Source of the DNA: an uncultured bacterium
GTDB taxonomy: Bacteria > Omnitrophota > Omnitrophia > Omnitrophales > Aquincolibacteriaceae
Reading direction: 5' to 3'
Assembly (NCBI GenBank): GCA_964434115.1
Contig: CAYSSX010000003.1
Coordinates: 12,554 to 76,553, forward strand
Length of the DNA: 64,000 nucleotides
The notes under the pieces were generated by a model. It saw only the letters and a program-made list of their open reading frames with translations. It did no database searches and was not told the origin of the DNA. The position numbers were made by a program, and so were the translations under genes. Shown piece by piece: positions 36,735 to 57,702 of the stretch (its first letter is position 1; each line of letters opens with the position of its first letter).

Positions 36735-36807
36735 GAGCCCGTAGCTCAGGTGGTAGAGCACATCCCTTTTAAGGATGGTGTCGATGGTTCGAATCCATCC
36801 GGGCTCA
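36735..36807 (+). tRNA. tRNA-Lys (anticodon UUU)
   Basis: A manual cloverleaf fits: acceptor GAGCCCG/CGGGCTC, D-arm GCTC-AGGTGGTA-GAGC, anticodon stem CATCC/GGATG with loop CTTTTAA (anticodon TTT), T-arm GATGG-TTCGAAT-CCATC and discriminator A. Confidence 0.85.
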
Positions 36808-36938
36808 CAAAAGTAAAACCCAACCCAGTGAGGGTTGGGTTTTTTTTTGCCTGAAAAGTGGTGGATTCGAACAGGAGTAGCGGCGCCCAAGAAAAAGGAG
36901 CACCGCCGGTGCGACTTCCATGCGACGGTACGGGGGGC
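36789..36938 (+). repeat. Direct repeat copy 1 (about 150 bp) comprising the last 19 nt of tRNA-Lys, the terminator and about 90 bp downstream
   Basis: It is nearly identical to 36995..37144, with 2-3 mismatches at an offset of 206 bp. Confidence 0.85.
36817..36849 (+). terminator. Rho-independent terminator after tRNA-Lys
   Basis: AACCCAACCC-agtga-GGGTTGGGTT is followed by TTTTTTTTT. The element is duplicated at 37023..37055 inside repeat copy 2. Confidence 0.7.
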
Positions 36939-37460: not shown

Positions 37461-40400
37461 ATGTCGCAAACTGACTGTATGGCTATTCTAGGCGCACGAA
37501 AGTGCGCGGCGGTAACATTGTTCTTTTTCGGCTTTCAGACAGTCGCTAGCTCTGCGCCTGCTGAGACGCTTTTACCTGCCGCCTCTCAAATTCAAATCCA
37601 AGAAAAAATCCCCAACTTTACTCCTCAGGAGATTGCCGGATACCTCCGGGAAATCCCTTCCGAACTTGGCAGTTTGCGTGAAAGCTTCATTCCTGGAAAT
37701 GCTGACGCTGAAAACGGGACGGCTGAGAAACTTCCGATGCCGGTTGTTTTTCATGTTCAGGACGCACATGCAAATCTTGAGGCGCAGGCGAGAATAAAAG
37801 AAATCCTGGAATGGGTTCGGAAAATGTCGAAAGACCATGGCGTTCAAGGGCCTGTTGTCGTGGCGCTGGAGGGAAGCGCCGGGGAACTTCATCCAGAGTA
37901 CCTTGATTTATTTCCGGAATATCCGGAGGCGAATGAAGCTTTTGTCCGGGATCTCAAAGACAAAGGCGAGATCACGGGAAGCGGTCTTTTCTTGTGGGAG
38001 CAGTATAAAGAAAAAAAATCGCACCCGGAAAACGACTCGGAAAATACCGGAAACATTGTGTTTTGGGGCGCTGAAAATCCGGAGCTTTACCGGCGTAATT
38101 TGAATCAGTTTCGAAGCCTTTTGATGAAACGCAAGGAGATTGATGCGTTTCTCCAGCCTTATCAAGCCCAGCTTGCCATAGCTCAATCGCGTATTCTTAA
38201 CCCGCAGCTTCGGGATTTTTTGAAAGACAGTGATAACCCCGAGACTCTTGCCCTGGCAGTTCTGAAGCACGCCAAGCCAACACTGGGTATTGATCTTTCC
38301 GAGCGGATCGAGCAGATCCGTTTCCCTAATCTTGCGCGTTTTGCCTACCTCCGTGAGCTTGAGCCGCTCCTCGACTCAGAACTGTCCCGCATGGATTGGC
38401 AGTCGCTGAAAAAGGGGTTTGAAAAGGATGGGATTCCCGAGGAGATGATCGCGAGGTTTGAACAGCTTTTTTCTCCTTCGGATGAAACGGGTGTCTCCTT
38501 CCGGAAAACAGTTGAAGAGATTTTACAGCGTTCCAATTTTTCCGCATCCCGCTTCCGTGATTACCCTCATTTGGCACAATGGGTTTCCTACAAATTACTC
38601 AGCCAGGAAATAGAGTCTTCGGATTTTGTCGCCGAGCTGGAACGGCTCAAGCAGGCGGTGATGACGAAATTGGCCGTGCGCAAGCAGGAAAAAGATTTTC
38701 TGAGTGTGCACAGTGACTTTTCGCTTTTTCAAAAGGTGCTTCATCTCGAAGTGACGCGCAGTGAGTATGCGGAAGCGTTGAAAACTGGAGGCCGTCTTCA
38801 GGCCGGTGAATTCAGCAAGCGCTTGGGCGAACTTCTTGAGCGGGATCGTGAGTTTGAGGAGCTCGGCAAAAATGCACGCAATAACGAGGCGGCTCTTCAA
38901 GAGGTCTTTAAGAAGGCTCTTGGATTCTACGAAGGTGCAGGAAGCCGCGATCTTGAAATTTTGGAGAATGCGCTTAGCTTTTATGACAAGCAAGCCAGGG
39001 CTCAGGTCAGTTTGCAGGAAGGCGCGCTGTCAAAGCCCGGAGTTCTGGTGCTTGTGACAGGAGGTTTTCATTCCGAGGGTGTGACACGTTACCTTAAGGA
39101 TCAAGGGATTGCTCACCTCGTGGTCGTTCCGAGGATTTCAAAAATCGAAACAGAAAATCTTTATTTCAAAGTCATGCGCCGTGAGAATTCCGACATGTCC
39201 GCTTATTTTGACAAAAACCCCCTGAACAAACAGGAGTCTCTTTTCCTTCGCGGACTCGTTGAAAAAGCGGCCCCGGAACTCACTCAAAAATACGGCGTTT
39301 CGAGCGCGGAAATCCCGCAGTTATTGGAGCAAGTCATTCACCGGCATCCGGTGCTTTCTGAAAAACTGGAAACCGCTGTGTTTCCCGGTGAAGGCAAACC
39401 CTTTGTCCGGATTAGTGTCACAGATCCCGCGAAGAAAGCCGTTCGAACCTCGGCTCAAAGTGTTGGGGAAGTGGACCTTCTTACTTCGGCAGGAAAGGGC
39501 CAGGCCTCTTATGCTTATTTGGCAGAGCAGGAATTCGACCCGAGCCTTGTTACAACGGTGACAGTGACGCCGAGCTTAAGCGGTCATTCCGCCGTTGAAA
39601 AAGCGCCGCTCAAAGGCGGTCTGTTGATGCAAAACCTGGGAAGCCTTGAAGTGACCGCGGGGCCGATTGATGCGGCTAATTTAAAAATTCTTAGATCCGC
39701 CGCCGATCAAATGCGTAATTTCAGCGGGATCATGAGCGCGACCCAGGCGGGGCCGAATTCTCTTATTCTGCCCCAGGCTGGAGTGCGGTCGGAGCTTCGA
39801 ACGATTCCGCAGGGATCCGAGAAGAAAGCGGTGGCAGAAATATCGCTCGATAAGATGACGGCAAATCAGGAGGAAATTAACCGGATCGTTGAAAACCATG
39901 ACCTGATTTATGTGAAGGCGGACATCCAGGATACTTTGACCTATGCGGAGTATATGAAAAAGTTTGAACCGTATATCACGGCGATTGGGAGTGCGCTAAA
40001 AACCCTTCGGCAAAAGGAAAAGCTGGGCGGGCGTGACAATTCGCATAAAGTCTTTATCATGAAAACCTGGTCGGAAGTGGGAAGCACTCAAAAGTTTTTT
40101 GATGACATCAAATGGTTCCGGGAACCGACACCGGAAGAAGGCGACAACGATTACTTTTTTGACGTTGTTTTTCAACCCGATTTTTCCTACCGGAGCGAGA
40201 GCGGAAAGGATGTCGAGGACCAAATCCTTTTTGGGGTTCGGAACCTTGGCGTTCCGAGCGGGGATCTCGAAACAGCCCGGCAGGAGAGGACGCTTAATCT
40301 TTTGCGGAAAAATTTTGATAACCCGGATTTTATGGGTGCTGCCAGCGCGGAACAAACGAAGAATGATTTGTTTCTTTACCTGGCGGCGAAGCTCGCGCAC

Positions 40401-43400
40401 TTTAATGACTTAGCCAAGGTGTCAGAGCGTTATGGTGCGGACCTTAGCGTGGTGGCTTATGGCGCGGGGCTTGATAAACGAATCCGCAAACTTTTCACCA
40501 ACCCTTCTTTAGGTTTCGGCGGACGTCTCGCCCAGTTTTTGGAGTGGGTCAGGGAAGAGAGGCTGGAAGAAGTTCTGGCAGCTCTTGAAGCCCGTCCGGA
40601 TTTCTTTACGGAGCGTGAAAAACAGGATACCAAGCAGAAGAAACTGGAAATTATTGAAAGACGCCTTTCGGACAGTGTGTCGATGCTCCGTGAAATTGCT
40701 GAGAACCCGGACAGCGACATCACGGTGAAAGATATTCTGGATAAATTGCCGCCTATCCTGCATTTCCTTTTCGAGCTGGAAACGGTTCTCGATATCAACA
40801 AACGGAATCTGCAGGATTTTTCTGACAAGATTTCAGCGTATGTCGGTGACCTCAAGGGAAAGAAAGCGGCGCTTATTGGCGTGGGGTACCGGGAAGGGGA
40901 CACCCGGGTTACAAAATCTCCGGCCAAGCGGATTATCCGGCAGCTTGTGGCCGCGGGAGTGACCGAGTTTTACGTCTCGGATCCGCTCGCGCGGCAATCG
41001 CTTAAAGAATGGATCGAGGCCATCAGAAAAAACCCGCATGATTCGATGGGGAAAATTCTCAAAGACCGCCGTGTTCGCTTTTATGGCGTGGATGATGGAA
41101 CCCCCGATCTTGATCTTTACACAGCCTCTGCGAATTCCGACTTCGTGGTGATTCCCACAGATGCCAACTCCGATTTGAAGAATTTGGACCTCCCAAGACT
41201 TAAACAGAGTCTGGGGGATAAATTCCTTTTTGACGGAATTAACTTTTTTGGTCTCCGGGCGAACGGAGAAACAATTTATTCTTTAGAGGCCCTTCGGGGC
41301 GCGGGTATCCGCTATGTCAGCGTGGGCCGTCCGCCCTTGAATTTTTCCAGCGATTACGCACTTGTAGACAGCCGCGTTATTGGTGACGATTATGAACGCG
41401 GCGATGCTCAGCTCGCAGCAAAAGCCGTTGAAGAGTATCAGGCCTATCTCTTATCTCTGGAAACAGACGATGAGCGGAGAAAGAAACTGGAAGAGATTTT
41501 CAGAACACCGCAATTAGACCAGCGTGAAGCGAACGCTATTCCTGTCACTCAAAAGAAGGTTGCCGTGATTGGCGGCGGTTACGTGGGATTGACTACGGGG
41601 GCCAACCTGGCCGATCTCGGAAATGATGTGACCGTTCTCGATATTCCGCAGAGGAAGCGCGCGATGGACGCGTTGACCAGTGAAGCCACGGAAGTTCCTA
41701 TTCATGAGCCCGGTCTGCGCGACCTCATTATTAAAGGTAAGGAAGCCGGCAGGATACGGTTTCAAACCCTTCCCGCGGAGTATGAAAAAGGTGTGCGTGA
41801 AGCGAGCATTGTTTACCTTGCCGTGGGAACCCCTCAGCAGGACAACGGCGCTCAGGACCCCGCTTATATCAATGGTGCTATGCGTGATATCGCGGCCATT
41901 ATCAAACGCCAAGCCTCGGAAACGAGCAGAGAGGCAGCCTTTAAAACCATTGTGATCAAATCGACCGTGACTCCCCGGGTATTCGAAGACGCGGTAAAAA
42001 TTTTGGCGCAGGAGTTCGGCCTCAAGCCAGGGATTGATTACGGCTTTGTCAGTAATCCGGAGTTTTTGAGAGAAGGGCAAGCGATCAAGGACATTACCAC
42101 GGACCTTGACCGGACCGTTCTGGGGTTTTACTCGGGAATGCCGCAGGAAGCCCGCAGGCGAGTCGAAAAAGATCTTTTGGAACTCTGGTATCCGCTCATG
42201 CTGCGCACCCCTCACTCTGTTCTGCTGACCGATACGGCAACCTCTACTTTAATCAAATACGCGGCCAATGCGTTTCTCGCGGTGTCCATCACCACGGCGA
42301 ATGTGATGGCCCAGGATGCCGCGCTTGAAATTGAAGGTTCCAACTTCAAGGAAATCGCTCCGAGACTGCGCAGAGACCAGCGGGTTGGAGCGAATGCCTT
42401 CCTGAGCGAGGGATGCGGGTACGGCGGATCCTGTTTTCCTAAGGATGTCCGTGCGGTGAACTATCTTTCCGATGAACAAGCCGGCCGTTCGCTTTTGATG
42501 ATTGTTCTTGCCGATCAATTGAACCAATATTTCAAAACCGCTGAGGTTAAGCGGCTGATTGAACAGCTTCGCGGGACCAAGGCGATTGGGACGAAGGCGA
42601 TTCTTCAGGGCAAAGTCATCGCTCTTCTTGGAATGGCTTTCAAAGCTGAAACCGACGATATGAGAGAAGCGCCAAGCGCGCACGTTCTTTATGAGCTTTT
42701 GAAATTGGATGCCCAGCAAGTCAGGATCGATGACCCGATTTTCAGAACACCGGATGCCCCCCGGAAAGAAGTGATTATCAATAATTATCTGGGAGAGCTT
42801 TACAAGCATTTCAAACACGATGTGGATTTTGAGAGAGCCTTTGACGTCTATCTTAGATCCGGGGCTTTGGAAGATCAGACGGTTCAGCGTCAACTGTTCG
42901 CCAGGCTCCGCTTCAACCCGGATGTCCAAAAGCAATTGAGAGAAAGAATCAGTGTTGATTACGATGTGGATCTTGATGAAGCCGCTTTCCGGAAAAACTA
43001 TGGCATCTATTTTGATCCAAGTAATCCCAAAGATCCATGGGATGATCAAGCCGCCCATCTTGATGTCCGCCCGTTGATTTATGGATTTCAAGGTTTGTTG
43101 AAGACCAACCGCATCGACAGCTCCTCCCTTAAGGAGTTTTACTTCCGTGAGGTTTTCTTTAACCTCAAATACCAGGTCACGAACAGGGTGGTTTTTGTGA
43201 ATCAGGCCGAGGAAGCTCTTTCTTTTGAAGCTTCTGCCGGCAGCGGAAAACGTCCCGCGGATGCCGCACTTTTGATTACGGATTGGAGCGAGTACCGGAA
43301 TTTGGACTATTCAAGTTTTTCAGGACAGCTTTTGATTGATACCCGCAATACCCTTTATGCACGAGCCCCGCAGCTGACATCAAGCCTGGGAATCAACTTA

Positions 43401-44372
43401 ATCGGTCCCGGCCGCCGCACGCCGGCGCTGGGATCCATCCGTTCTGAACTGCGCTTGGCGGAAACAGCCTCGGTTTTTGAAACCCTCGCTGCCTCGGATG
43501 CTGCTAATCCGGTGAGCACGGTCCAGTTCCGGGAAAGGGTTTCGGAATTGCCTCGCCCCGGATCTTCGAGCGTGGCGGAGTTTCTTGAAATTCACCCGGA
43601 CTTCAAACCCAGGGATCAGGTGGTGGATGCTGTAGCCGCATCGTTTTTGCCGGAAGATGTACTGCATACCGATGACCCGAGTTCTATCGAGTATGTTCAT
43701 CTGCGTCTCTCGGAACCGTCCAAGGTTTCCGAGGAAGAACCGCTTGTTCTAAAAGAAGCCCGTGCCGCTTTGGGAAAATACGGCTGGCTTTTGGATCAGG
43801 CAAAAACCCCGGGACAGATTATTCTTCCGCTGGAGCAGGATCAGTCCGGTGATGAGGATCAGTTGAATGACAAGCTGTTCCGGGTTGCGGTCGTTTTGGC
43901 TGCCGCGGACCCGGGAAATCATTTTGCTTTTCTTGTCGATGGAACTCCTCAGCAGGCCCGGGCACAGGCATCCCGTATTGCAGGCCGGCAAAGCGAACTT
44001 AAAATTCCGGCAGCCCGAATTCTCGAACAGTTCAAATTTGTGCCTACGGATGGAAGTTCAGCGGGGTACATCCGGGCGGTTAAACAGCTTTATTCGAAGA
44101 ATAAAGAGGTGGATTCGGCGGTCGTCGGGAAGCGGCTGGATTGGCTGAGCGATCTCGAGTATATCCCGCGTATGCATAGAATTTTCAACGAACGTCTTGA
44201 TGACAAGACCGCTATTCTTGTCACGGCGGCCCTTTTGCGGCAATTGAGCGATCAATACGATGTGGTCAGGATGGACGATCTTCTCAAAAAATTTGATATT
44301 AATCTTGATGAACTGGTTGAGAACGTGGCGCGTATGATCCAGGTCATCAACCATCTTGCGACCCAAGCTTAA
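37461..44372 (+). CDS. Giant multidomain protein 2 (2303 aa). It has an N-terminal hydrophobic anchor, the shared two-His N-module, an extra UDP-binding (UDPGDH-C-like) domain and a complete UDP-glucose/GDP-mannose dehydrogenase
   Basis: Uninterrupted 6912-nt ORF. N-module motifs are QDAH at 37758..37769 and GGFH at 39060..39071. The dehydrogenase motifs are VAVIGGGYVGLTTG, NPEFLREGQA, GCGYGGSCFPKD (Cys codon 42432..42434), IALLGMAFKAETDDMREAP and ITDWSEYRN. Confidence 0.8.
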   Translation: MSQTDCMAILGARKCAAVTLFFFGFQTVASSAPAETLLPAASQIQIQEKIPNFTPQEIAGYLREIPSELGSLRESFIPGNADAENGTAEKLPMPVVFHVQDAHANLEAQARIKEILEWVRKMSKDHGVQGPVVVALEGSAGELHPEYLDLFPEYPEANEAFVRDLKDKGEITGSGLFLWEQYKEKKSHPENDSENTGNIVFWGAENPELYRRNLNQFRSLLMKRKEIDAFLQPYQAQLAIAQSRILNPQLRDFLKDSDNPETLALAVLKHAKPTLGIDLSERIEQIRFPNLARFAYLRELEPLLDSELSRMDWQSLKKGFEKDGIPEEMIARFEQLFSPSDETGVSFRKTVEEILQRSNFSASRFRDYPHLAQWVSYKLLSQEIESSDFVAELERLKQAVMTKLAVRKQEKDFLSVHSDFSLFQKVLHLEVTRSEYAEALKTGGRLQAGEFSKRLGELLERDREFEELGKNARNNEAALQEVFKKALGFYEGAGSRDLEILENALSFYDKQARAQVSLQEGALSKPGVLVLVTGGFHSEGVTRYLKDQGIAHLVVVPRISKIETENLYFKVMRRENSDMSAYFDKNPLNKQESLFLRGLVEKAAPELTQKYGVSSAEIPQLLEQVIHRHPVLSEKLETAVFPGEGKPFVRISVTDPAKKAVRTSAQSVGEVDLLTSAGKGQASYAYLAEQEFDPSLVTTVTVTPSLSGHSAVEKAPLKGGLLMQNLGSLEVTAGPIDAANLKILRSAADQMRNFSGIMSATQAGPNSLILPQAGVRSELRTIPQGSEKKAVAEISLDKMTANQEEINRIVENHDLIYVKADIQDTLTYAEYMKKFEPYITAIGSALKTLRQKEKLGGRDNSHKVFIMKTWSEVGSTQKFFDDIKWFREPTPEEGDNDYFFDVVFQPDFSYRSESGKDVEDQILFGVRNLGVPSGDLETARQERTLNLLRKNFDNPDFMGAASAEQTKNDLFLYLAAKLAHFNDLAKVSERYGADLSVVAYGAGLDKRIRKLFTNPSLGFGGRLAQFLEWVREERLEEVLAALEARPDFFTEREKQDTKQKKLEIIERRLSDSVSMLREIAENPDSDITVKDILDKLPPILHFLFELETVLDINKRNLQDFSDKISAYVGDLKGKKAALIGVGYREGDTRVTKSPAKRIIRQLVAAGVTEFYVSDPLARQSLKEWIEAIRKNPHDSMGKILKDRRVRFYGVDDGTPDLDLYTASANSDFVVIPTDANSDLKNLDLPRLKQSLGDKFLFDGINFFGLRANGETIYSLEALRGAGIRYVSVGRPPLNFSSDYALVDSRVIGDDYERGDAQLAAKAVEEYQAYLLSLETDDERRKKLEEIFRTPQLDQREANAIPVTQKKVAVIGGGYVGLTTGANLADLGNDVTVLDIPQRKRAMDALTSEATEVPIHEPGLRDLIIKGKEAGRIRFQTLPAEYEKGVREASIVYLAVGTPQQDNGAQDPAYINGAMRDIAAIIKRQASETSREAAFKTIVIKSTVTPRVFEDAVKILAQEFGLKPGIDYGFVSNPEFLREGQAIKDITTDLDRTVLGFYSGMPQEARRRVEKDLLELWYPLMLRTPHSVLLTDTATSTLIKYAANAFLAVSITTANVMAQDAALEIEGSNFKEIAPRLRRDQRVGANAFLSEGCGYGGSCFPKDVRAVNYLSDEQAGRSLLMIVLADQLNQYFKTAEVKRLIEQLRGTKAIGTKAILQGKVIALLGMAFKAETDDMREAPSAHVLYELLKLDAQQVRIDDPIFRTPDAPRKEVIINNYLGELYKHFKHDVDFERAFDVYLRSGALEDQTVQRQLFARLRFNPDVQKQLRERISVDYDVDLDEAAFRKNYGIYFDPSNPKDPWDDQAAHLDVRPLIYGFQGLLKTNRIDSSSLKEFYFREVFFNLKYQVTNRVVFVNQAEEALSFEASAGSGKRPADAALLITDWSEYRNLDYSSFSGQLLIDTRNTLYARAPQLTSSLGINLIGPGRRTPALGSIRSELRLAETASVFETLAASDAANPVSTVQFRERVSELPRPGSSSVAEFLEIHPDFKPRDQVVDAVAASFLPEDVLHTDDPSSIEYVHLRLSEPSKVSEEEPLVLKEARAALGKYGWLLDQAKTPGQIILPLEQDQSGDEDQLNDKLFRVAVVLAAADPGNHFAFLVDGTPQQARAQASRIAGRQSELKIPAARILEQFKFVPTDGSSAGYIRAVKQLYSKNKEVDSAVVGKRLDWLSDLEYIPRMHRIFNERLDDKTAILVTAALLRQLSDQYDVVRMDDLLKKFDINLDELVENVARMIQVINHLATQA
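37758..39071 (+). other. Shared N-terminal module of giant 2 (between the QDAH and GGFH motifs)
   Basis: VVFHVQDAHANLEAQ ... VVVALEGSAGELHPEYLDLFPEYPEA ... VLVLVTGGFHSEGVTRYL. GGFH falls at residue 534-537, the same position as in giant 3. Confidence 0.6.
40855..41180 (+). other. Additional UDP-glucose dehydrogenase C-terminal-like (UDP-binding) domain in giant 2
   Basis: KGKKAALIGVGYREGDTRVTKSPAKRIIRQLVAAGVTEFYVSDP...DFVVIPTD follows the pattern VAVLGLAFKxxTDDxRESPA..II..L...GA.V..YDP...AD.VVI.T. Confidence 0.45.
41551..43370 (+). other. UDP-glucose/GDP-mannose 6-dehydrogenase domain of giant 2 (the UDP-binding subdomain has a long insertion)
   Basis: The NAD-binding GGGYVG, the central NPEFLREG, the catalytic GGSCFPKD, the C-terminal FKAETDDMREAP and the final ADAALLITDWSEYRNLDYSSFSGQLLIDTRN are all present. 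Confidence 0.75.
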
Positions 44373-44527: not shown

Positions 44528-47500
44528 ATGGATTTACCTAAAATAAAAACCGGGTGGGCCCGGCTTAGTGCTTGGCCTTTGCTCATCGTCTTTCTCTGTT
44601 CCGAGACGATTGGTCCGGGGTCTGTCCATTTAGCGTATGCCGGCGAACCCGCGGGTTTTTCTAGTGTCATCTCCGGTAAAGACGGGGATGTTTTAAAGGC
44701 TCTCTTGAAGCTGATGCCGGAGAATAAGGCTGTTGTTCAGAGCCTCGAAAATGGAAAGGGAAGTCCGGAAGACCCCCGGGTGATTCATCTTCAAGATGCC
44801 CATGCTAACCCCGAAGCTCAGCGCCATATTCAAGAAGTCCTGAGTTTTCTGGCGGAGCACCAAGCACGCAAAGGGCTTGATCTTTTTGTCGCCGTGGAAG
44901 GCGCCCGAGGAGATTTACACCCGGAGTATTTTGACTTCTTTCCGGATGTCCCGGAGGCCGGAGATGCGGTCGTTCGAGACCTTCTTGAAAAAGGTGAAAT
45001 TTCCGGCGTGGAACTTTTTGCCTGGTCCCAGTATCAGACCCTCAAAAAGAAACCCGCATCCGGCCAGCTGAACCCTGTGAAGATCCGAGGAGTCGAAACA
45101 ACACCGCTTTACCGCGAAAACCTGGAAACTTACCGGGCTTTGCTCAGCCGCCGGCCTTGGATTTCTGAAACCCTTGAAAAAGGTAAGGCGGCGCTGCAGA
45201 GCGAGATGACGCAGACGCTGAATCCGGAACTGACCCGTTTTTACAAAGAGCGTGAGAAACGCCGGCATGGGCAATTTGGAATCCGGAGAAAAGACGCGGG
45301 CAACGGTGATCTGAGCGTTTATGCGGATACGCTTAAGGTGCAGAGCGCGCAAACGCTTCAGGTTAATCTTGAGGATCCGGTTGAGCAGCTGCGCTTTCCG
45401 AATTTTGCGAGGCTTCTTGAACTGAAGAAAACGAAACTCAGTTTTCATGACGAAGCGACTGTTCAAGGCTGGAAGCAAGTCCTAGAGCTCCTTTCCAAAT
45501 CGCCTCAAAATGCAAGCAATCTGACGGCTCTTGCGGAGCTGGCAAAGAACCATGCTATTTTGACGGCCGAGGACCTGGCGGCGTTTCCTTCTGCCGAAGC
45601 CGTGGAAGAAATTTCTCCGCGCCGGATTTTTGAAGACCTCGCACAGCAGGGCATTCTAGCGGCCGCAGGCGAAGAGGGGGCCCTGCCCTTTAAGTCGGCA
45701 CTGAAAGCAATCGTTCTCCAGTCAGAACTTGATGTCCAGGGCTTGTTCGAAGAAATGGACCGTCTTGAAAATGGCATTCTAAATAGTCTGGCTGTGAGTC
45801 CGGCTGAAAAGGAATGGCTTGGCCGGATACAGAGTTATGAGAATCTCCAAAAGCTGATGTATCTGGAAATGACAAGGTCTGAATTTGAAAAGATCGATTC
45901 CCGGCGTCTTGACCTTGAAACCCTGCTGGGAAGCGTTCTTGCTCCGGACGCCCTGAAGGAATTAAAGAAACTCTCGGAGCAGGCATTTTTCTTTTACCAG
46001 CAAGCCCGTGAACGCGATGAAGCGCTTGTGTCCAATGCCCTTGAATTTGTGCATAAAGAAATGGAGGGGCCCGGACGGGAAGTCCTTTCCATGAAGAGGG
46101 AAGACGACTCCAGGCCCATTCTTGTTATTGTCAGCGGCGGATTTCATGCTCAAGGAATACAGGATGTCCTGCGGAAGAAAAAATTGTCCTTTGCGTCCGT
46201 GCTGCCGACTATCGGTGAACTTGACCGGGGAGAACGTTACGCCCGTGTTATGGGAGGCGAAAACGCCGACCTTCAAATTTACTTTAAGAATGCCAACCCT
46301 TTTCTGACGAAGCAGGAAGCTCTCTTTTTTAAAGAGGCCGTTGAGGTGGCCCTCCCTGTTTGGATCAAAGAAAAAGGAACTTCTCCCGATTCTCTCAACG
46401 AGGTGAAAGGTTCTTTTAAGAGCCATCCGGTGCTGTCGCAGATCTTAGAGGTCGAACTCGCGGAGTCTGCTGTTTCGCCGGCCCTTGTTTTTTCCGCGCG
46501 GCCTAATCTTGGGGCTTTGCTGCCAAGAAATTCTTCCATCAGCGCTGTCTTGTCTTCTTCGGATATTGCTTTCAGCCGCGAAGTGGAGGGGAAACTTCCC
46601 AGGAAGGAAACGTCTTCCGAATTCCGGTGGAAACCTTCAGGGGTTTCATCCGCGCCCCGGCCGCAGGAAATCCCGGCTGGACCGCGTGCCGAACTGCGTT
46701 CAACGGGAACATCGTTAAGCCCGGAAGAACAAAGGTTTGCCGAGCAGAATATTCAGGCCATGTACAACGCGGTTCAGAAGTCGGAAGGTCCCGACATTGT
46801 GATCATTGTTTCTGCGCAAGAAAGCGAACGGCGTTTTTGGAAAACAAGGCTTGAAGGCCTGCGCGGGCAGGTCATCGGAAAAGATACAACGGTGTTTTCA
46901 GTTCTGGAAAGTTACGGAGCCGGTTCTCCTCCGGGAAATGGGCTGGGCAGTCTGCTGGCCTATCAAAGCGCCCGGGAAGAAAGCAAAGAACAAGCCGGTG
47001 TCAGCTGGAAAACATTGATGGAAAAAATCAAACGCGAAAAGGGCAGGGAAGCGACGATTGCGATTTATCACACGGCAGGTTTTGGAAGCCGTGTTTGGCC
47101 GATCACCGGTTCCGAATACGGTTCTAAAAGCCGCATCACGATGCCTCGCTATTTGGATAAAGCAGGAAGCAAGGTGCCGATGACGCTTCTTGAGTCCACC
47201 ATTTTTCAAAGTTCGATTTTTGCCAAGAACCGCCCAGGACGAATCCTGGTGTTTTGGGGAGACCAGGTGTTTGTGCCGACGGTGCCGCTCGAGGAGCTTC
47301 AAAGTCCGAGTGATTCTCCTGTCGAGATTTTGGCGTTAGTGGGACAGTTTCCCTACGAAGACATTATCAATAAATATGGGTTGATCGCACTTGAATCGCA
47401 GGGGCCGGACGGATGGACGGCTGCGCGGCTCATGCAAAAACCAAAAACGGTGCAGGAAGCCCAGGAATTTATAGCTGCGCACAGCCAGGTTTCGGGAATG

Positions 47501-50500
47501 GGAAAAAGCCTGGGATCTTTCACTGTGGATCGCCGCTTCTGGGACAGCATGATGCGTTCTTACCGCCAGGAATTGAATGAGGAAAATCCCCTTGAGCAGT
47601 CAAAGAACCGGGCGGATACGGACGGTGATTGGTGGATCCCTCTCACGAGCCTGGAGTTTGTTCTGAAGAATGCCTCGACGGATGTTTCGCAGTTTAAGAA
47701 TGCAAAGGCTCTGAAAGAATATCTTGTGAAAGAGGGGCTTGACCAGCCCGAGTTTACGGACCGGGTCATCCGCCTTTATCTGAGCTCACGGAAAAACTCT
47801 TCTCAGCCTTTTATGAAGGTCATCAATGCCGGAGCCAAATCTCTTTGGTGGGATTTTGGAAATGTCGGAGTCGAGGAAGGAACCACAGAAGGAATCTTCA
47901 GGCGAAACATCCTTGTTCTTCTTCAGGATACAGCGGAAGGCCGTTTGGCGCGGCAGTTCTGGGGAGTGCCAGAACTTTTCACGGGAACATTGCCCGGAAC
48001 GCAGGTTCAGGTTCAGAATTCCATCATCACAGCTTCTGAAATTTTGCCCGGATCGACCGGCGCTATTCAAAATTCCGTCATTTCAGGGGTCCGGGGAGCT
48101 TTCAACTTTGAAGTCTCCGACAGTTTCCTTTACGGGATTACGAATGAAAGCGCTTCCCCGCAATCACCACTTAGCGTCAAGTCCGAACATGGGATTGGCT
48201 ATCAGTTAAAGCTTTCCGCGCCGCTTGCTATTTCCTCGGGACACATTCTGGCAGGCGTTCCAGTTCTTGGAGTAGACGTTGTTTTGAGAACAACTGAAGC
48301 GTCAGATGCAAAACAACTGTGGCTCCGGGCTATGTATGAAAATCTATTAGCTTTTGGATCCGCGGCTTATCTTATCCGTCTGGCTGAAGCTAACCGCAGC
48401 GCCCAAATCGCAGGCGTCTCTGTTTCGAACCTTGAATATCGCGGCTTCTTTGAGCATCAGGGGATGCAGCATGCCGTGATCGAAGGGCGTGACGCTTCAG
48501 ATCAACCGGTTATCGCAGTCCTGCACGTATCTTCTGTTGATCAGATAACAGACGCAGAACTTCATGAGGCCATTCTTTCGCCGGGCATCGAAGGCGCAAT
48601 CTTTTCCGGGAAACTCTATGACAGTTCCAGAGAAATTCTTCTCCTTACTTACGCGGCACGATCCGAATTGCGCGGTCTTGAGATGGATTCTTTGGCGCCT
48701 GAAATCCAGACCTTATTAGCGGCTACCGCCGATGAAGCGGCCTTGAAACAGGAGTTTCTGAGGCTTGTGTATGAAAAGCTTTCGCCGGAAAAAAGCGCGC
48801 AGGCTGCCGCTGTTTTTAAGGCCGTCCGCGCAGACAAACTCCCCTATGAGTACCCGCAGTTTTTTGAGGGGGTGATAAGTGCCCGGACCCAGGCATCCGG
48901 CCAAACATCTTTCAGAGCCTATTTGGAAACGAATCTTTCTGCTAACCCTGCCGAAATCAGCGCTTTTGCGGCGGATATTCTCCGGGCCTTTTCAAAAACC
49001 GCAGATTTTGAAAGGGCTACGACGGCTTTTTTCCGGTTTGATCAGACTTCGACCATTAGGTTTGTGGACCAGCTCATTGAAGAGAAAACGCTTACAGGCG
49101 ACAAATCCGTTACGGTAAAAAGCTTGGGAACTTCCAGCGGAGAAGAGCCTTATACGCTGGCCATGATTGTTTATTATGGATTGAAAAAATATTACGAGGC
49201 TCACCAGCGGGAAATATCGTCAAAAGAAGGGATTGGGACCTTCCAGGCTTGGGCAGAGAGCTGGAATGTTTCAATTGAAGCCTATGATTATGACCTGGCG
49301 AATTTAGTCCTCGTTCAAAACGGTTTGTTTGATTTTCTTTACGATGACCCTATGGGCGGATTTGGTTACAACGATGAAGACAATTATCTCAATGAAGCGT
49401 GGCTGTATTCAAAGGACAGAAATACCGGGGCTCTTGGGCCTGCCGAAACATGGCGGTATTCTCCAGAAACGGAAGCTGGAGCCTCTTTCCCGTTTCGCTC
49501 AACGCTTAGCAAACGGTTGAAATCGGGAGAAAAGATCGGCTTTAAATTTTCTGCCGTCGATTTGCTGAAAAAATGGATGAAGCCTGTTTATGTTGATTTG
49601 CGGGGACCCGCTGACGCTGAAGTTCTGAGTCTTACCCAAGCGAATATTATTGTTGTGAGTTTTCTGCGGGGCGCGGCATATCTCGATTCGAAAGATGATT
49701 ATCTTGTTCAGGCTATAGAAAAAAGCCGGGATGCAAAACACAGCAGTCTTGCCCTTGCCGGATCTGCGATCGTGAAGCCCGCTCAGCGTTCGGAGCTCAG
49801 AATAAGCACAGAGACGGAGAGCCTTGACAGTACACTTTTGAACGCCGTTGGAAAATTGGATATCGAAACATCCGAAGGAGTTAAAACGCTAAAACTGCTT
49901 GTCAGCCGGATCTTGAAATCGGCATTCACCCGGACACTGTCGGCTGAGCAGCGGACAAAAATAGCAGATCTGTCAGGTTTAACCGAGGACAGCGAACAGT
50001 TGGAAGTCCTTCAGGACATTCTTGACGATCCCGAAGTTCTGCAGGTTTTCAGAGATGATCTTGCTGCTGATGATTCGGGCGATGTTCGTTTTGACGCGGC
50101 CGCCCAAACCTTGAGCTATACACCCGGATATGCATTGGCCGTACAGGCTGATATTGACGAAGCGCTGCGCACCTTTGAAACGGGCAGTTATGTCGATGTT
50201 CAGGGGGCTATGATAAAACTTCTCCGGCAGGTGAGCCTGGGATTTGCGGAGGAGGTCCGGAAGAGTCTGAAACAGAGTTTGGTTCGTGAGTTTGAACAGT
50301 GGCGGATTTTGATCAAAGTCTTGGAAACCGAGATTGGTGCCAGATCTGAACTTCGTTCATCAGAAAAAACCTATTCGGAAGCTCTCCAATTTACATCCCG
50401 TCCTGTGGTGACGGTTTCCGGTGATTCCGCAAAAGTTGAAATTACTTTCCGGACAGATGCCGCCACGCTTGAAAAATCAGAAATGTTTTTTCATTGGGGA

Positions 50501-53500
50501 GACTATACGCAAGGCCCGCTGGATTGGACGGATCACGAAATTCTAAATTGGGACATCGAAGATCTCGGCGGCGGTATTTATAAAGCATCAAAGGTGATTC
50601 AGCCCGGCCGTATCGGTGAGTTCGGAGTCACAGCCTACGCGCAGAACCGCGTGACGGGAGAGCGGGTTTGGCAGGGAAAAAACCGAGGTGATGATGCTGT
50701 GATGGGGATTGACCTTCTTCCGAAAACCGTCCTTGAAGACCTCCGGCGTAATCTTAAAAAACAGGAAGCCATTCAGGAGATCCGGCAGAGCCTTATTGAC
50801 ACGAATCCGTATGACAGCTTCATCACTGTGATCCACCGTCTCGTGGTTGATGAAGAAATGCGGGGCATGGGAAAAATTGTTTACGACGCAGTCAAAGATG
50901 TCCCGCGCTTCCGAACGGTTCTTTCTCAGATTCACAGCCGTCTGAAAGAGGACAGTAAAGTCTGGAATCCGTTTTTCAAGGAAAGGGCGCTTCCTGCTTT
51001 GCATGCATTAGAAACGCTCGGCATTGGAGAGATTGTTTTTGTAGCTCCTGAAGGTCCTCATGCGATTGCCGGCGGTTTGGCCAAGGTCATTGAGGGCCTT
51101 GCCAAGGCTTTGTCAGAAAGCGGTGTCTCAGTCACGGTCATCACGCCTCTCTATGAAGACAATCAAGGTAAGAAGCATGAATCCGCAGAAGCTTTGATCG
51201 AAAAAGGTTTCATGACAGAAAGCGGGGAAAGAGTTCCCATTAAGGCCGACCCCGTCGCTGAGATCGGAATGACCTTTGGCCCCATTTATGATTCGGGAAC
51301 GCACATGACCGGTTTGAGCGATGACAAAATCCGGACCTTTCAAAGAACAGTTCAAAGCCGGGTCTATGAAGCCAAAGCAGAAGGCGTCCGGTACCTTTTC
51401 CTCAGACACCCGCGCCTTGCTGACAAGCTTTACGCAAAAGTCCCGTCTTCCGAAGAGTTAAGGCGCGCTGTCTTTCTGTCCCGGGCCGCGCTTGAAGTGG
51501 TTCAGAACAGGGCGCTTGGCGTTGACCCGCAGCTCATCATTTCCAATGACTGGGTCACCGGGTTAATCCCGACGTTCCTTCAACGTGATCCGCGTTACTC
51601 CCAAGACCCCCTTCTCAAGGATGTCGGCACGGTTCATATGATTCACAATTACGGGCGCGACTATCAGGGGCGTGTTTTTACGAATCAATATGGGTTGGAT
51701 CTCTGGCCGCTTCTTGGACTCAAGCACGACTTCTACAAAGATGTTGCAGACCCCAATGATGACCGGTTCCTCAACATCACTTCAAGCGCCATGGAGCACG
51801 TCAACCGTTCCATTCTGACGGTGAGCCGTCCGTATGCCGAGCAGATGCTCACCCCTGAAGCAGGGGAAGGTCTCGACACTATTCTCAATCCGCTGAAAGA
51901 AATTCTGTTTGGAATCAGTAATGGAATTGATGAAGCGGCGGCCCGGAAAACATTCTGGAAAAAGGGTGAAGAGGCCCGTCAGGCCCTCGAACTTCCAGGG
52001 CTTATGGAAGACTATTCCGATGAAGGCTTTTTGAAAAATCTTTGGGACTATAAGAATTCGGCGCTTGTTAAAACTCAGAAAGACTTCGGTTTTACCGAAG
52101 ACCCAGATGCGATCTTTTTGTCGATGATCGGACGCGTTGCCGAGCAGAAAGGCATTCAGCTTTTGACGGATACGGAAAATGGAGTGACGGTTCTGGAAAG
52201 CCTTCTCCAGATGAATCCGAAAGTTCAGATTTTTCTGGGCGGGCCTGTTGCAGAAGGGGATGGGACGGCGGAGCGGCTGCGGGATTTGACCCGTGAACTT
52301 GAGCAGAAATATCCGGGCAGAATCCGGGGGGAATACACCTTCATTCCGGGAGCCACAACCCTTCAGGTCATGCTGGCAAGCCGATTCTTTTTAATGCCTT
52401 CCCGCTATGAGCCAGGGGGCATTACGCAGCTGGAGTCGTTGGCGTCGGGAACGCCTGTGGTGGCAAGAAATGTGGGGGGGATTGCCGCAACCTTGATTAA
52501 TTATTTTGATCATCCCGATAATGGCAACGGCTTTTTGTTTACAGATTTTACCGGCGCAGCCCTTCGAGGAACGCTCGCAGCGGCTTTTGATGCAGCGGCT
52601 GGCGACCCCGGCCTTCTTAAGACCTTGTCCAACCGTGCTGCCAATGCTCAAAACGACTGGCATGACCGGATTCCTCAATATCTTTCTCTGCTTCAACTCG
52701 GGGCCGGCGTGATCCGTCCTTCGGAAACGGCATTTCAGACAGATTATGCTTATCTCTCTGACCGGACAGGCATTCTTAACGACCTTCGCCCCCGCAACCG
52801 CGCAGAATTGAGATCGGATAAAGGGAACCCCTATATACTGGAAGAGAATGTCACCCGTGGATTTGCATTTCTTGATGAAATGCATGGGGGCCGCGTGAGC
52901 ACGGCGATTTCAAACGCGGTAAAACGCGCAGCGCCAGGAACTAAACCCAGAGTGCTCCTCTTAGAGGTCGGACGCGGAGTTGTGCCTGCCGAATTGATAA
53001 ACCAGAGAGACGAAAAGGGTGAAAAAAAATGGCCCGATGTTGAGTTCTTTTCGTCCGGTGCGGAAGACCTGCTTTTTTCTGCAGAAGAACTGGAGAAATT
53101 CATGGGCAATATCAGCCCTGAGGAGGCTGCGGTCATCGCGGATACTATCAGAGGCCGTTTCGCCGCTGCGGATCTTGACTATGATCTTGGCGCTTTTGAG
53201 AATTCCACATTTGATGTCATTGTCATGACGCAGGCTGTGATGGAGTACATGAGAAATATCCCCGGAGTGATTGACCGTCTTTCCAGAAAATTAAATATCG
53301 GAGGAGAGTTCATAACCGATCTGGACATCATGAGTATTAAGGATCCCGAGACGCAGGAAAGAGTGGATACGAAAGCTTTCTTTGAGTCGTTGAATCCAGG
53401 TTATGAGATCTATGGAATTACCCTGAAAGGCACACCGCTGCCGTACGACTTTTTTGCAGGACTTCGTTTCACGCGCCTGTCAGAAGACATTCCCAAAATT

Positions 53501-56500
53501 CCGCTGGATGCGACACAGAGTTCAAAAACCTATACAGTGCAGCGCTCTGAGCTGCGCGCGGAACAAGCCAGCGCTCCCCAAAACGTGCGTTTGAACGGCG
53601 TTTCACCTGAAATGCTGAAAGTAGAAGCCGGCGAGCTGGTTTTTTGGCGTCCGTCCCAGCGTCAAATGAACACGTCTCTGAAGAGGCCTTATGATGATGA
53701 AAAGGTCGTGGTCCAGAAAATACACAATGAGCTTGAAACTTTGGATACCCTTTGGATGCAGATTATGGGCGAGCTTCAAGAGCGGAGCTATTCCCCTGAT
53801 GCGCTGGATATTGTGGAGCTAATGGTTCGACGTGCGATGGAGGTGATACGGACCCAGGAGATCAAAGCGGAAGTGGCGCTCCGAACGGTGAAAGAGGAAA
53901 TGCTGGCGGCCGCTAAAGAAGAATCCGGTGATGATCTGGATTTAACGACGGCAGCAGGAATCGTAGATAAGAGGCTTCTCCCCGCTTTGGAAAACCGTGA
54001 AGAGCTTGTGTATGTTGAAAGCGGTCTCGATGAAGAGGCGAGGAAAAAACTCTTCATTGATCGAGAGAGAGACCAAGTACTCGCGAAAGTTTTTGAAATC
54101 ATTCTTCGACTGCCGTATGGGCTGCACATTTCCCCCGAGGATTACGGAGAAGATGAAAAAGACAGGGTCAAAAAGCTGATCCATACGGAACGCCAAATAG
54201 CGGACGGACGGCGCGCCATGCTCACCAATGACCTACTGCCGGAGATCCTGAAAGTTGTTGAACAGGGGAAGAGGGCCCAGTTTGCAATTAATCAGGTCAT
54301 CAAAAAGAAGGTCGAGCCGGGCTTGGAGCGCTTAAAAAAGATGGTGGACGACAGCCGTAAAACAGGCGGAGATACCCTTGTCGGTTCAAGACTCATCAAA
54401 GTTTTTGAAGAACAGAGATCTCTCCTGGAAGGGATTCGCGACGAATTTGACACGTATGATTTTATTTATGATTCGTCAGACCTGCCTGCGGAAAAGGAAA
54501 AGAAGCGGCGCGGCGAGCTTGAACGGTTTGAAGCCGTTTACAGGGACACCCTGGTTTTTTTCCCAAATCCCTCTGAGGATCTAAAAGCGTTTCTGGAAGA
54601 ACTCAGAACCCTGGTTACGTATGAAATCCGGGAGCGCGGCCGCACGCTGGACTATGGTATCGCGAAATTTTTCAGTCAAAAGGGATCGGAGCGGTATAAA
54701 GATATTCCCACTGAGCAGCTTGATTTCCTGATGCGGTTTTACAACGTCAGCCAGTATGGCATCGTGAAGCGGAAAGGCGACAAGAACCTTGTGGTTTTCG
54801 CGGAGAAGATCCGGCATGAAGCCGATTTTGCCGAGCTGATGATGAGGAACAAGGGGCGCGGAAGAGTGGTCTCAATTGCGACGCTCAAACGGTTCGCTCC
54901 GGATGACGCGCCCGGCCGGGTACCGCACTGGTTTATTTTTTCAAAAGACCAGGGCATTGTTCCGATTGAAGCACTCGACTTTGAAGATCGTAAAATGGAT
55001 TTCAAGGACCTCAAAGACGGAGACTTCGTTCTGGTGGACGGCAAAAAAGGAATCGCTGTCGTGAACCCGAACTCGGAAACTCAGCGCGATATGATCGAAC
55101 GCGGCAAGGTTTACAAATACCTGGATGAGTATTTCCTTCCGCGCGTGTCTCTGCCGGCTCTTGTCAATGGACGACCGTTCTACTTTTGGGCGGATGAATC
55201 ACGTTTGGATTACCTGAAGCGCGACGGCGATCAGCCGAGATTCCAGAAATTCGGAGCCCGGGGGATCGGACTGCTCCGGCTTGAGCAGTTGATGGGAGAA
55301 ATGGACCGTGCGGGCATTGAGTTCGACGAAATGCGCCTCAGCCTTGCAATCGAAGAAATGCTTCTGCCGTTTTCCGATCCTGAAGCGCCGTTGACGATCC
55401 GACTTTATGATGTTCAAGGAGATAAACGCCCGAAGTTTTTTGTGGAAGGAAAAAGCGAGGAACAAATCGAGGGTATTCTCAAGACGCATTCCAACATTCG
55501 CTTTTACCTGGACGAACGGGAGGAATTCCGCAATCAGCGTGAATTCGGAAAAATGCAGATCAAGGCGATTTACCGGGCTTATCTCCGCGCGCAGAAGAAC
55601 AACTTACAGATTCTGCTCCCAAATCTGCTGAAAGTGGAAGAGGTAGAAGCGTTGAAGAAGCTTTTTGATGAAGCGCGCCAGGAGCTTATCCGTGAACTTG
55701 AAGAAGAAGCTCTGATTCAGGTAGAAGCGGCCGTGGTGCGCCGGCACGGGTGGATCACAGATATTAATGCTTTGGAAACCGAAGCCCTTGAGAAGGGGCT
55801 CGACTGGTTCAGGAATCAGCTTCTAAGTAAGCCCGAAATGAAGCCGCACGAGGAGCAGTTCGGGCAAGAGTCCGACGCTGATTTTGCCAAGGTGGCTGGC
55901 CCTGATTTTGGAAAGAAAGTCACTCTGAGTTTGAGCAAAATCCGGTTTGGATACATGTTCGAAGAGGTTTCGGCTGTTGAGCAGCGCAGCGACATTATGA
56001 AGGCTGTCCTTGCGCAGCATCAGGTTGCGGAGGCCAAGCCTTTTTTTGGAATCGGTACGAATGACCTTCAGAAGTCAGTACTTGAGTCCCGCGAAGAAAC
56101 CAATGATGAGATGAACAAGCTGCACCCCGGACTTGTGAAGGCTATAGCGGATCTTGAGGGGACTGCGCGTGAGCTAGGACTTCATCTGACCGTTGAAGGC
56201 CAGTGGGGCGGATCCGCCCGCATGCTGTTTGCCGCCATGGCGCTTGAAATCTATCACGGGCGTAAGATGCAGCTCGTTGCGCCCACCAATAAAATCCCTG
56301 AACTTCTTGAAATGATCCGGATGACTGAAGCCGCGGATCTGGAACACGTTTTTGACTTGGGATCCAGCTATAAGCCGGCATCCATGAAAACATTGATTGA
56401 CCGGATGGAAGCCGGGGATCTTCCTGAGCTGGATGAGATGAACCTTGTCGCGACCATGCTGCAAGACCGTATTGAGGCGAAGATTGTGGCCAGTTCTGAT

Positions 56501-57547: not shown

Positions 57548-57583
57548 ACCCCCTCTTATTCGGGCCCATTAGACCTCCTTTAT

Positions 57584-57658: not shown

Positions 57659-57702
57659 TAATTTTTAATCAACAGCCTGTCGTAAACCGGCTGAGCAAGT
57701 TT

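Follow-up and report, generated by a model that had tools for sequence, protein, structure and literature searches.

A conserved tandem of a degenerate and an intact UDP-glucose dehydrogenase unit in a modular, delimiter-punctuated protein family, possibly a new polyprotein system

Background

A 64,000-nucleotide stretch of DNA from an uncultured bacterium of the phylum Omnitrophota (assembly GCA_964434115.1, contig CAYSSX010000003.1, positions 12,554 to 76,553; hereafter the window) encodes three very long proteins, here referred to as giants g1, g2 and g3. Giant g2 contains a cassette of two consecutive units of the uridine diphosphate (UDP)-glucose/guanosine diphosphate (GDP)-mannose dehydrogenase (UDPGDH) family, of which the upstream one (unit 1) is degenerate, while the downstream one (unit 2) possesses the complete set of catalytic motifs. 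The same dead-then-live tandem is present in about 30 protein clusters, all of which represent very long proteins and, as far as their sources are named, originate from Omnitrophota. Probably, the cassette constitutes a covalently linked pseudo-homodimer, the dead paralogue giving the live unit a dimer interface and an arginine that acts in trans. The tandem is conserved within a modular protein family punctuated by short delimiter peptides, which points to a possibly new polyprotein system.

Known UDP-glucose dehydrogenases (UGDHs) are obligate dimers formed via their central domain, with an arginine residue contributed in trans (PMC3184952). In the solved structures, pairing of the central domains buries 2,600 Å2, and Arg260 in the D-x-R-I-G loop of the human enzyme (hUGDH) reaches into the active site of the partner, where it positions glucose (PMC3184952). 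An earlier note on the window, made from the sequence only, had described in g2 a full dehydrogenase preceded by an extra, stand-alone UDP-binding domain.

Unit 2, a complete dehydrogenase

The three Pfam domains of the UDPGDH family, for which the earlier note had proposed a hidden Markov model (HMM) check, were all matched when the whole of g2 was scanned: PF03721 with 134.7 bits (amino acids (aa) 1365-1557; gathering score 27), PF00984 with 98.1 bits (aa 1594-1689) and PF03720 with 80.7 bits over three stretches, the match in unit 2 being split by an insertion of 145 aa. The NCBIfam model TIGR03026 (nucleotide sugar dehydrogenase) was likewise matched, with 315.7 bits versus a cut-off of 189.8. 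Among PDB sequences, aa 1365-1990 matched the UDP-glucose dehydrogenase BceC of Burkholderia (E = 1.7e-62) in an alignment that pairs GGGYVG (aa 1371-1376), AVGTP, KSTV, NPEFLREG (aa 1532-1539), KYAANA and GGSCFPKD (aa 1655-1662) of unit 2, and residues K1599, N1603, C1658 and D1662 align with BceC and the canonical enzymes. The C-terminal domain carries FKAETDDMREAP (aa 1727-1738) and ITDWSEYRN (aa 1939-1947). The complete dehydrogenase recognised by the earlier note from GGGYVG, NPEFLREG, GGSCFPKD and FKAETDDMREAP was thereby recovered, with both the motif for binding nicotinamide adenine dinucleotide (NAD) and the catalytic cysteine intact.

Best matches of unit 2 in PDB were UDP-glucose enzymes (215 bits), followed by GDP-mannose dehydrogenase (131 bits) and UDP-N-acetylmannosamine (UDP-ManNAc) dehydrogenase (77 bits), which makes UDP-glucose its most likely, if unproven, substrate. 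Unit 2 would use two NAD+ to oxidize a UDP-hexose to the corresponding uronic acid, UDP-glucose being the most probable candidate. Among free enzymes, the closest reach only 37-42 % identity with unit 2.

The interruption of the C-terminal domain is situated between DDPIF (aa 1757-1761) and RVVFV (aa 1909-1913). An insertion ahead of ITDWSEYRN had been noted before; it is indeed present and comprises about 145 aa (aa 1763-1906) instead of the approximately 170 aa then given. The insertion was found in most orthologues, is nearly absent in one of them (P0006) and represents the least conserved part of the cassette by segment-wise identity.

Unit 1, a degenerate dehydrogenase

The supposed extra domain upstream of unit 2 displays the motifs by which it had been recognised, i.e., ALIGVGYREGDTRVTKSPA (aa 1137-1155), YVSDP (aa 1171-1175) and FVVIPTD (aa 1228-1234). 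It also scores as a member of the family of C-terminal UDP-binding domains (UDPG_MGDP_dh_C): the fragment aa 1130-1364 matched PF03720 with 32.5 bits (E = 1.2e-7) over profile positions 1-101 of 103, which clears the gathering score of 30 only narrowly. Since the cysteine and the NAD motif of unit 2 are intact and the extra domain matches PF03720, neither of the two findings named by the earlier note as speaking against its description was made. The domain does not, however, stand alone. The 350 residues preceding it also have a dehydrogenase fold, as revealed by a PF00984 match to aa 962-1022 in a scan of isolated fragments (39.8 bits versus a gathering score of 25.4) and by a phmmer comparison of aa 751-1364 with the UGDHs in PDB, which aligned this region colinearly with BceC residues 120-277 and then 300-379 (E = 3e-14 to 4e-13). 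The feature therefore starts at about position 39825 of the window and ends at 43418, and not at 40855 and 43370 as given earlier. The gap between the upstream C-like domain and the Rossmann fold of unit 2, previously put at about 120 residues, is filled by a linker of about 73 aa that is predicted to fold into three helices.

Judged from its sequence, unit 1 is a three-domain dehydrogenase homologue and not a functional member of the family, i.e., a pseudoenzyme, from which the catalytic cysteine, asparagine, aspartate and threonine have disappeared. No PF03721 match was obtained with isolated fragments of unit 1. The first β-α-β element with the GxGxxG loop is absent from unit 1 in the clade of g2, and other clades show a G(I/L)EDAG-type sequence at this position. 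KSTV is replaced by KTWS, NPEFLREG by QPDFSYRS, and KYAAN by TKNDLF, which retains the lysine and lacks the asparagine. In place of GGSCFPKD, unit 1 has GFGGRLAQ with neither cysteine nor aspartate, and about 105 helical residues are inserted there. Among the UDP-contacting motifs, FKxxTDDxRE is replaced by YREGDTRVTKSP and IDTRN by FDGINFF, so that the arginine of D-x-R-N has become isoleucine. The loop GAGLDKRI in the central domain is preserved; R1007 within it corresponds to the trans-acting arginine of solved UGDHs, and the loop is nearer to the canonical G-x-G-x-D-x-R-I-G than its counterpart in unit 2.

Direct BLASTP comparison of the upstream with the downstream half of g2 yielded only a 27-bit match in the C-terminal domains, for which reason the duplication has probably been overlooked. 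It is detectable via profiles and PDB sequences and not via self-comparison of the protein.

Co-occurrence and conservation in the family

When 1.84 billion representatives were searched exhaustively with an HMM profile of unit 1, 28 clusters were retrieved at E ≤ 1e-30, all of which, fragments aside, are located within proteins of 1,470-7,609 aa. None of the 28 clusters represents free proteins of about 450 aa; ordinary UDPGDHs of 430-460 aa appeared only from 1e-24 downward. When 29 carriers of unit 1 plus g2 were examined, a unit 2 bearing GxGxxG was found directly downstream of unit 1 in 27. P0162 and P0172, without a match to the GxGxxG pattern, were left out of the motif alignment, as was P0165, the unit 2 of which shows signs of degeneration. 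The joint alignment comprised 27 unit 1s, 27 unit 2s and five canonical enzymes.

Across the 27 tandems, unit 2 retains GxGYVG, KSTV, NPEFLxEG, KYxxN, GGSCFPKD and FKxxTDDxRE with two minor exceptions. The NAD loop, the cysteine and the asparagine are absent from unit 1 in all 27, and the trans-acting arginine is retained in every one of them; unit 2 has lost its own in five lineages (P0008, P0151, P0155, P0158 and P0167). Throughout the family, the UDP-contact pattern FKxxTDDxRE of unit 1 is changed to (Y/F)(R/S)...(I/V)T(K/E)SP and the arginine of D-x-R-N to isoleucine, and since these motifs are replaced in all members, canonical UDP binding by unit 1 is unlikely. The central domain of unit 1 shows identities of 96, 96, 96, 86, 76 and 49 % to g2 across the orthologues and is the best-conserved segment of the entire 2,303 aa, ranking above the catalytic domains of unit 2.

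Several database proteins of about 900 aa, matched in six stretches, were considered as relatives of the tandem and rejected: three are intein-containing UDPGDHs and two are independent tandem fusions. The former (P0222, P0263 and P0287; approximately 890-900 aa) are UDP-glucose dehydrogenases from unrelated metagenomic sources with an intein located between GGSC and FPKD, each intein carrying a homing-endonuclease-like region. The latter, P0174 (942 aa) and P0237 (910 aa), are free-standing tandem UDPGDH fusions from metagenomes outside the giant family. Both halves of P0174 possess the cysteine and appear to be catalytic, whereas P0237 combines a first half without GxGxxG loop and cysteine with an intact second one. 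Scored with the profile of unit 1, the two fusions reach E values of about 1e-17 to 1e-22; they are closer to ordinary UDPGDHs than to unit 1 and therefore probably of independent origin.

Predicted structure of the cassette

An AlphaFold2 (AF2) model of aa 789-1988, calculated from an alignment of 55 sequences, reached a mean predicted local distance difference test (pLDDT) score of 88.9 and a predicted template modelling (pTM) score of 0.88. The approximately 1,200 residues were modelled as a single compact body, in which both units, the linker of 73 aa and the insertion are all confidently placed. Foldseek retrieved UGDH structures with the cassette model at a target-normalised TM-score of 0.85.

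Pseudo-dimer and alternative explanations

In the pseudo-dimer, unit 1 would be an ancient, catalytically dead paralogue, unable to bind NAD and without a nucleophile, that would supply the contributions of a second protomer, namely the dimer interface of the central domain and R1007. Unit 2 would provide the residues acting in cis and unit 1 the arginine acting in trans to one composite active site, and the complementary degeneration of the two units is what such a single site predicts. That unit 1 keeps the dimerisation domain together with the trans-acting arginine points to a structural, complementing partner and not to a sensor. We infer from this that the units pack in the manner of a canonical dimer and that R1007 acts in trans. 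An independent precedent for the viability of a dead-first/live-second architecture is offered by P0237.

A number of observations weigh against this explanation. The loop of R1007 is the least confident region of the model, with pLDDT below 50 at aa 1008-1010, and the canonical two-fold dimer geometry of the units is presumed. The dead half of P0237 has lost the trans-acting arginine (DPDIG), so that its retention is not universal for such fusions. Scores of unit 2 with equivalog-level models were far below the cut-offs (TuaD, NF047673, 307.6 versus 700; AglM, NF041297, 261.1 versus 670), and its substrate specificity is deduced from best matches only. Finally, given the signal-like N-terminus of g2 and the lack of any other membrane segment, an enzyme that requires NAD and a UDP-sugar would come to lie outside the cytoplasm, in a place where neither of the two is to be expected.

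The last point leads to a different explanation, according to which g2 is exported and acts, as a whole or after cutting at RSELR (see below), outside the cell or in a host or prey, and not as a metabolic enzyme of its own producer. It could serve as an effector draining UDP-glucose and NAD+ or as a surface-structure component that binds sugar nucleotides or polysaccharides. Consistent with such a role are the signal-peptide-like N-terminus without further membrane segments, the presence of other cytoplasmic-type sugar enzymes behind the same N-terminal module in family members, the proposal that Omnitrophota are host-dependent or predatory (PMC10066038), and the same topological puzzle encountered in a 2026 preprint with much larger "multi-enzyme" giants (bioRxiv 10.64898/2026.06.07.730766). 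Export is, however, only suggested by the sequence, and genes for a secretion system were not found beside g2, while the strict conservation of catalytic residues argues for catalysis and is silent on location. An outside role is regarded as rather unlikely; as it concerns location, it is compatible with the mechanism of the pseudo-dimer. If the enzymes truly work outside the cytoplasm of the producer, they would represent a new kind of metabolic effector.

Clearly less probable is that the upstream C-like domain is an extra nucleotide-sugar-binding module, channelling substrate or acting as a regulatory element, as the earlier note had suggested, for instance as an allosteric sensor of UDP-sugars such as UDP-xylose or UDP-glucuronate. 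The domain does span the full PF03720 profile with a score just over the gathering score and is well conserved among orthologues (35-83 % identity), and allosteric inhibition by UDP-xylose is known for human UGDH, of which PDB entry 5VR8 was among the structural matches. It is, however, part of a complete three-domain unit and not free-standing, the residues contacting UDP in canonical enzymes are replaced in all family members, and the strongest constraint rests on the central domain and not on the C-like domain. A channelling or regulatory UDP-sugar binder is not supported by these data.

That unit 1 is a dead remnant left to decay without a function after a tandem duplication, ordinary homodimers being formed by unit 2 of one chain with unit 2 of another, is highly improbable and was rejected on conservation: even though every catalytic feature is gone from unit 1 (in the g2 clade even the first β-α-β element), unit 2 of g2 still has the arginine of its own DxRVG, and the natural variant P0007 is without most of the cassette, unit 1 persists in all of the approximately 30 clusters down to about 20-30 % identity and always beside unit 2, no part of the protein is better conserved than the central domain of unit 1, the trans-acting arginine of unit 1 is invariant whereas unit 2 loses its own in five lineages, and AF2 packs both units as a single body (pTM 0.88).

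The pseudo-dimer is proposed as a clean natural case of an obligate homodimeric dehydrogenase turned into a heterodimer within one chain, of which one half is live and the other dead. The complementary pattern of residue loss would reveal those parts of a second protomer that are really needed.

Features of g2 and its genomic context

The features of g2, together with related elements in g1 and g3, are compiled in Table 1.

Table 1 Features of g2 and related elements of g1 and g3, with positions in the window
Feature	Residues of g2 (aa)	Position	Strand	Characteristics
Giant 2 (g2) ORF		37461..44372	+	2303 aa plus stop codon; single open reading frame (ORF)
Signal-peptide-like N-terminus		37479..37556	+	MAILGARK-CAAVTLFFFGFQTVA-SSA; from sequence
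Shared N-terminal module	~55-640	37623..39380	+	~310-aa helical domain within alpha/beta core; core motifs D101-A-H103, E137, G534-G-F-H537
Upstream delimiter RSELR	776-780	39786..39800	+	R776, E778 and R780 invariant in 7 orthologues
Unit 1, N (Rossmann) domain remnant	789-955	39825..40325	+	phmmer to BceC from residue 120; motif table; AF2 secondary structure
Unit 1, central (dimerisation) domain	956-1025	40326..40535	+	PF00984, 39.8 bits; GAGLDKRI with R1007; GFGGRLAQ replaces GGSCFPKD
Unit 1, helical insertion	1026-1130	40536..40850	+	At continuation of would-be active-site PKD loop; alignment, AF2 helices 233-340
Unit 1, C-like domain	1131-1291	40851..41333	+	PF03720, 32.5 bits; extra UDP-binding domain of the earlier note
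Inter-unit linker	1292-1364	41334..41552	+	~73 aa; three predicted helices (AF2 model residues 528-575); no delimiter motif
Unit 2, NAD-binding domain	1365-1590	41553..42230	+	GGGYVG, AVGTP, KSTV, NPEFLREG; PF03721, 134.7 bits; PDB 2y0e, 1.7e-62
Unit 2, central domain	1591-1690	42231..42530	+	K1599, N1603, C1658, D1662; PF00984, 98.1 bits; motif table
Unit 2, UDP-binding domain, first part	1691-1762	42531..42746	+	FKAETDDMREAP; PF03720 profile positions 1-47
Lineage-variable insertion	1763-1906	42747..43178	+	~145 aa; predicted seven-helix bundle (AF2 helices 981-1117)
Unit 2, UDP-binding domain, second part	1907-1986	43179..43418	+	ADAALLITDW, IDTRN, GINLIGPGRR; phmmer to BceC residues 391-452
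Downstream delimiter RSELR	1994-1998	43440..43454	+	R1994, E1996 and R1998 invariant in 7 orthologues
Shared C-terminal module	1999-2303	43455..44369	+	Ends ...HLATQA-COOH
N-terminal module in other giants		g1 ~947-2866; g3 44618-46567		Each ~600 aa
Other RSELR copies		g1 2648-2662; g3 48659-48673, 49787-49801, 50342-50356, 53543-53557

Full-length orthologues of g2 have 2237-2328 aa and share 46-85 % identity with it; those retrieved by homologue search reached 48-82 %, and a further relative from this search has 3,041 aa at 31 % identity. Relatives with a named source as well as all five genome loci (5/5) belong to metagenome-assembled genomes (MAGs) of Candidatus Omnitrophota. The gene order rpsB-tsf-pyrH-frr-tRNA-Lys, g2, g3, tRNA-Glu and a Sua5-family (yrdC-like) gene represents an ordinary chromosomal housekeeping context, and neither UDP-glucuronate-using enzymes nor secretion genes were found in the genomic neighbourhood of g2. 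The genes for tRNA-Lys (36735-36808) and tRNA-Glu (57583-57659) flank the g2-g3 pair on both sides.

Synteny is preserved in a MAG whose orthologue shares 88 % identity with g2 (locus L001, 7664-14357 of contig CAYRBY010000003.1). There, the gene is present as two ORFs (884 and 1350 aa) that overlap; the split is located inside unit 1 and is due to a frameshift or an assembly error. A natural variant among the orthologues is P0007 (1274 aa), in which a deletion that begins halfway through unit 1 and ends shortly ahead of the second delimiter has removed most of the cassette; the N- and C-terminal modules are kept whole.

In the NCBI gene model (P0001), M7 of g2 is taken as the first residue. 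A hydropathy scan of g2 revealed no window of 19 residues above 1.6 anywhere and no hydrophobic segment besides the N-terminus. The earlier observation that the dehydrogenase is tethered to a signal or anchor and to an uncharacterised module agrees with the signal-peptide-like N-terminus and with end modules that have no match at threshold in Pfam or NCBIfam.

Delimiter peptides

The pentapeptide RSELR brackets the cassette of g2 on either side. Seven copies are present in the window, of which one belongs to g1, two belong to g2 and four to g3, compared with about 0.3 occurrences of RSExR expected by shuffling, and none of those in g2 and g3 is located within a Pfam domain. Per family protein, 2-11 copies of RSExR were counted versus 0.03-0.14 expected, corresponding to a 50- to 100-fold over-representation. 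Among family members of the RxExR type, the motif brackets the tandem in 26 of 26, and a delimiter scan of the family never detected a delimiter motif between the two units. The seven RSELR copies differ in their synonymous codons, from which it follows that selection acts on the peptide; a nucleotide-level signal, such as a recombination or RNA-processing site, was rejected on the same grounds.

Lineages without RSExR repeat other short peptides between their modules, e.g., GARLA in P0025 (8 copies versus 0.00 expected) and (A/S)SLG in P0164, P0167, P0171 and P0172 (2-3 copies each versus about 0.03-0.2 expected). Lineage-specific delimiters are what co-evolution of a site with the factor recognising it would give. 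RSELR may be regarded as a candidate module delimiter or processing site; a full-text literature search for RSELR returned nothing relevant. The delimiters offer concrete candidates for cleavage sites to N-terminomics and top-down proteomics and allow the giants to be cut into cassettes for structure prediction.

Shared end modules and a possible polyprotein

Together with dozens of relatives, g1, g2 and g3 share their end modules, between which interchangeable cassettes of central sugar metabolism are placed. The enzymes found between the end modules comprise UDP-glucose pyrophosphorylase, glycogen synthase, phosphoenolpyruvate (PEP)-utilising enzymes, HPr and PutA, as well as phosphofructokinase (PFK), aldolase, PEP carboxykinase (PEPCK) and phosphoglucomutase.

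The N-terminal module is common to g1, g2, g3 and at least 25 family members and is characterized by a signal-like start, HxQDAHxNxEAQ, VxxEG and GGFHxxG, the residues H, E and H being invariant. Its AF2 model (pLDDT 85.8, pTM 0.82) displays an alpha/beta core into which a large helical region is inserted. No Pfam or NCBIfam model matched the module at threshold. The only recurrent weak Pfam match was PF04187 (ChaN, TIKI superfamily), obtained with 2 of the 10 modules scanned in full and with 6 of the 20 constructs restricted to the core at a best E of 0.0013, all below the gathering score of 27.7. HMM profiles of the full module and of the core only had no match in PDB, and when homologues were sought with the latter profile, 8 short fragments were all that was retrieved. 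With Foldseek, erythromycin esterase EreC was found at a non-significant E of about 1.5; matches to PDB were mostly spurious coiled coils arising from the helical insertion and were discarded. The D-x-H, E, H pattern fits the 2His/2Glu of TIKI hydrolases, and the module may be considered a candidate remote hydrolase of the TIKI superfamily.

The C-terminal module (about 300 aa) likewise had no match in Pfam or NCBIfam. Throughout the family it ends in (A/S/T)-x-A, and the C-termini consist of a helix and small residues (...HLATQA, ...RIAAAA, ...VERSA; the ends of g1 and g3 are located at 8795-8830 and 57461-57496, respectively). This module could be a sorting or secretion signal.

Giant g3 (44528-57499, 4323 aa) contains a glycogen-synthase-like unit of glycosyltransferase families 5 and 1 (GT5/GT1) at aa 2169-2674, a PEP-utilising enzyme domain at aa 3572-3727 and a weak match to a CheR-like methyltransferase at aa 1498-1550, each in a different RSELR-delimited segment. 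Giant g1 (797-8833, 2678 aa) possesses the N-terminal module, and Pfam domains were not found in it at E ≤ 0.01; in contrast to g2, six of its segments, located at aa ~901-1042 and 1883-1973, are strongly hydrophobic.

Delimiters, shared end modules and TIKI-like signatures suggest, and do not demonstrate, a processed polyprotein. In a tentative scheme with less than even prospects, g2 and its relatives would be self-processing polyproteins, the TIKI-like N-terminal module of which cuts at lineage-specific delimiters (RSExR in the majority of lineages, GARLA or ASLG in the remainder) and thereby frees the cassettes after export, possibly into a host or prey. If this holds true, the delimiters would be the first predicted cleavage points in long proteins of Omnitrophota; such points are reported in neither of the two papers on giant proteins of this phylum, the one from 2023 stating that the information is lacking (bioRxiv 10.1101/2023.11.21.568195).

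Comparison with known systems

Canonical UGDHs, i.e., BceC (PDB 2Y0C/D/E) and the enzymes of P. gingivalis (3GG2), S. pyogenes (HasB, 1DLI) and human, share the three-domain fold and the catalytic motifs with unit 2. They differ from g2 in that the latter would have its second protomer in cis, as a fused and catalytically dead paralogue, has about 145 aa of helices inserted into the C-terminal domain and embeds the enzyme in a protein of 2,303 aa with a signal-like N-terminus. The free tandems P0174 and P0237 occur outside giants and are without delimiters. A full-text search retrieved no paper combining UDP-glucose dehydrogenase with "pseudoenzyme". In trypanosomatids, the prozymes of S-adenosylmethionine decarboxylase (AdoMetDC) and deoxyhypusine synthase are dead paralogues that serve as obligatory partners of the active subunit, with an active site at the interface. 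These prozymes are separate chains and belong to different enzyme families, whereas the two units of g2 form one fused chain.

Published giant proteins of the same phylum are the "Archaeovorins" (bioRxiv 10.1101/2023.11.21.568195) and the "multi-enzyme metabolic cluster" (bioRxiv 10.64898/2026.06.07.730766). Their genes encode GT5 and other sugar-enzyme domains, and cleavage of the products has been speculated upon; the paradox of enzymes outside the cytoplasm has been noted for these far larger proteins (bioRxiv 10.64898/2026.06.07.730766). Like the g2 family, they combine signal or membrane segments with embedded sugar enzymes (GT5 glycogen synthase, phosphoglucomutase), and, like g2, they may be cut into pieces. 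With at least 10,000 aa (ORFs of more than 20 kb) they exceed g2 (6.9 kb, 2,303 aa) and g3 (4,323 aa), which fall under this threshold; some members of the g2 family reach 5,132-7,609 aa. In term searches, the 2026 preprint was found to be without UDP-glucose, the 2023 preprint without dehydrogenase, and neither contained polyprotein.

MARTX toxins provide a functional analogy for the modular layout. An internal protease frees their modules by cutting between them, and the RRSP module is a sequence-specific endopeptidase with the TIKI fold and a 2His/2Glu site (PMC6254334). A long exported polypeptide with several enzyme modules is the common feature, export and processing being hypothetical for g2, and the likeness to RRSP consists in the invariant H, E and H of the N-terminal module and its weak, sub-threshold matches to the TIKI clan. 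The analogy is functional only: in Pfam, g1, g2 and g3 have no peptidase C80 domain, RTX repeats or toxin effectors, and the cargo of the g2 family consists of enzymes of central metabolism.

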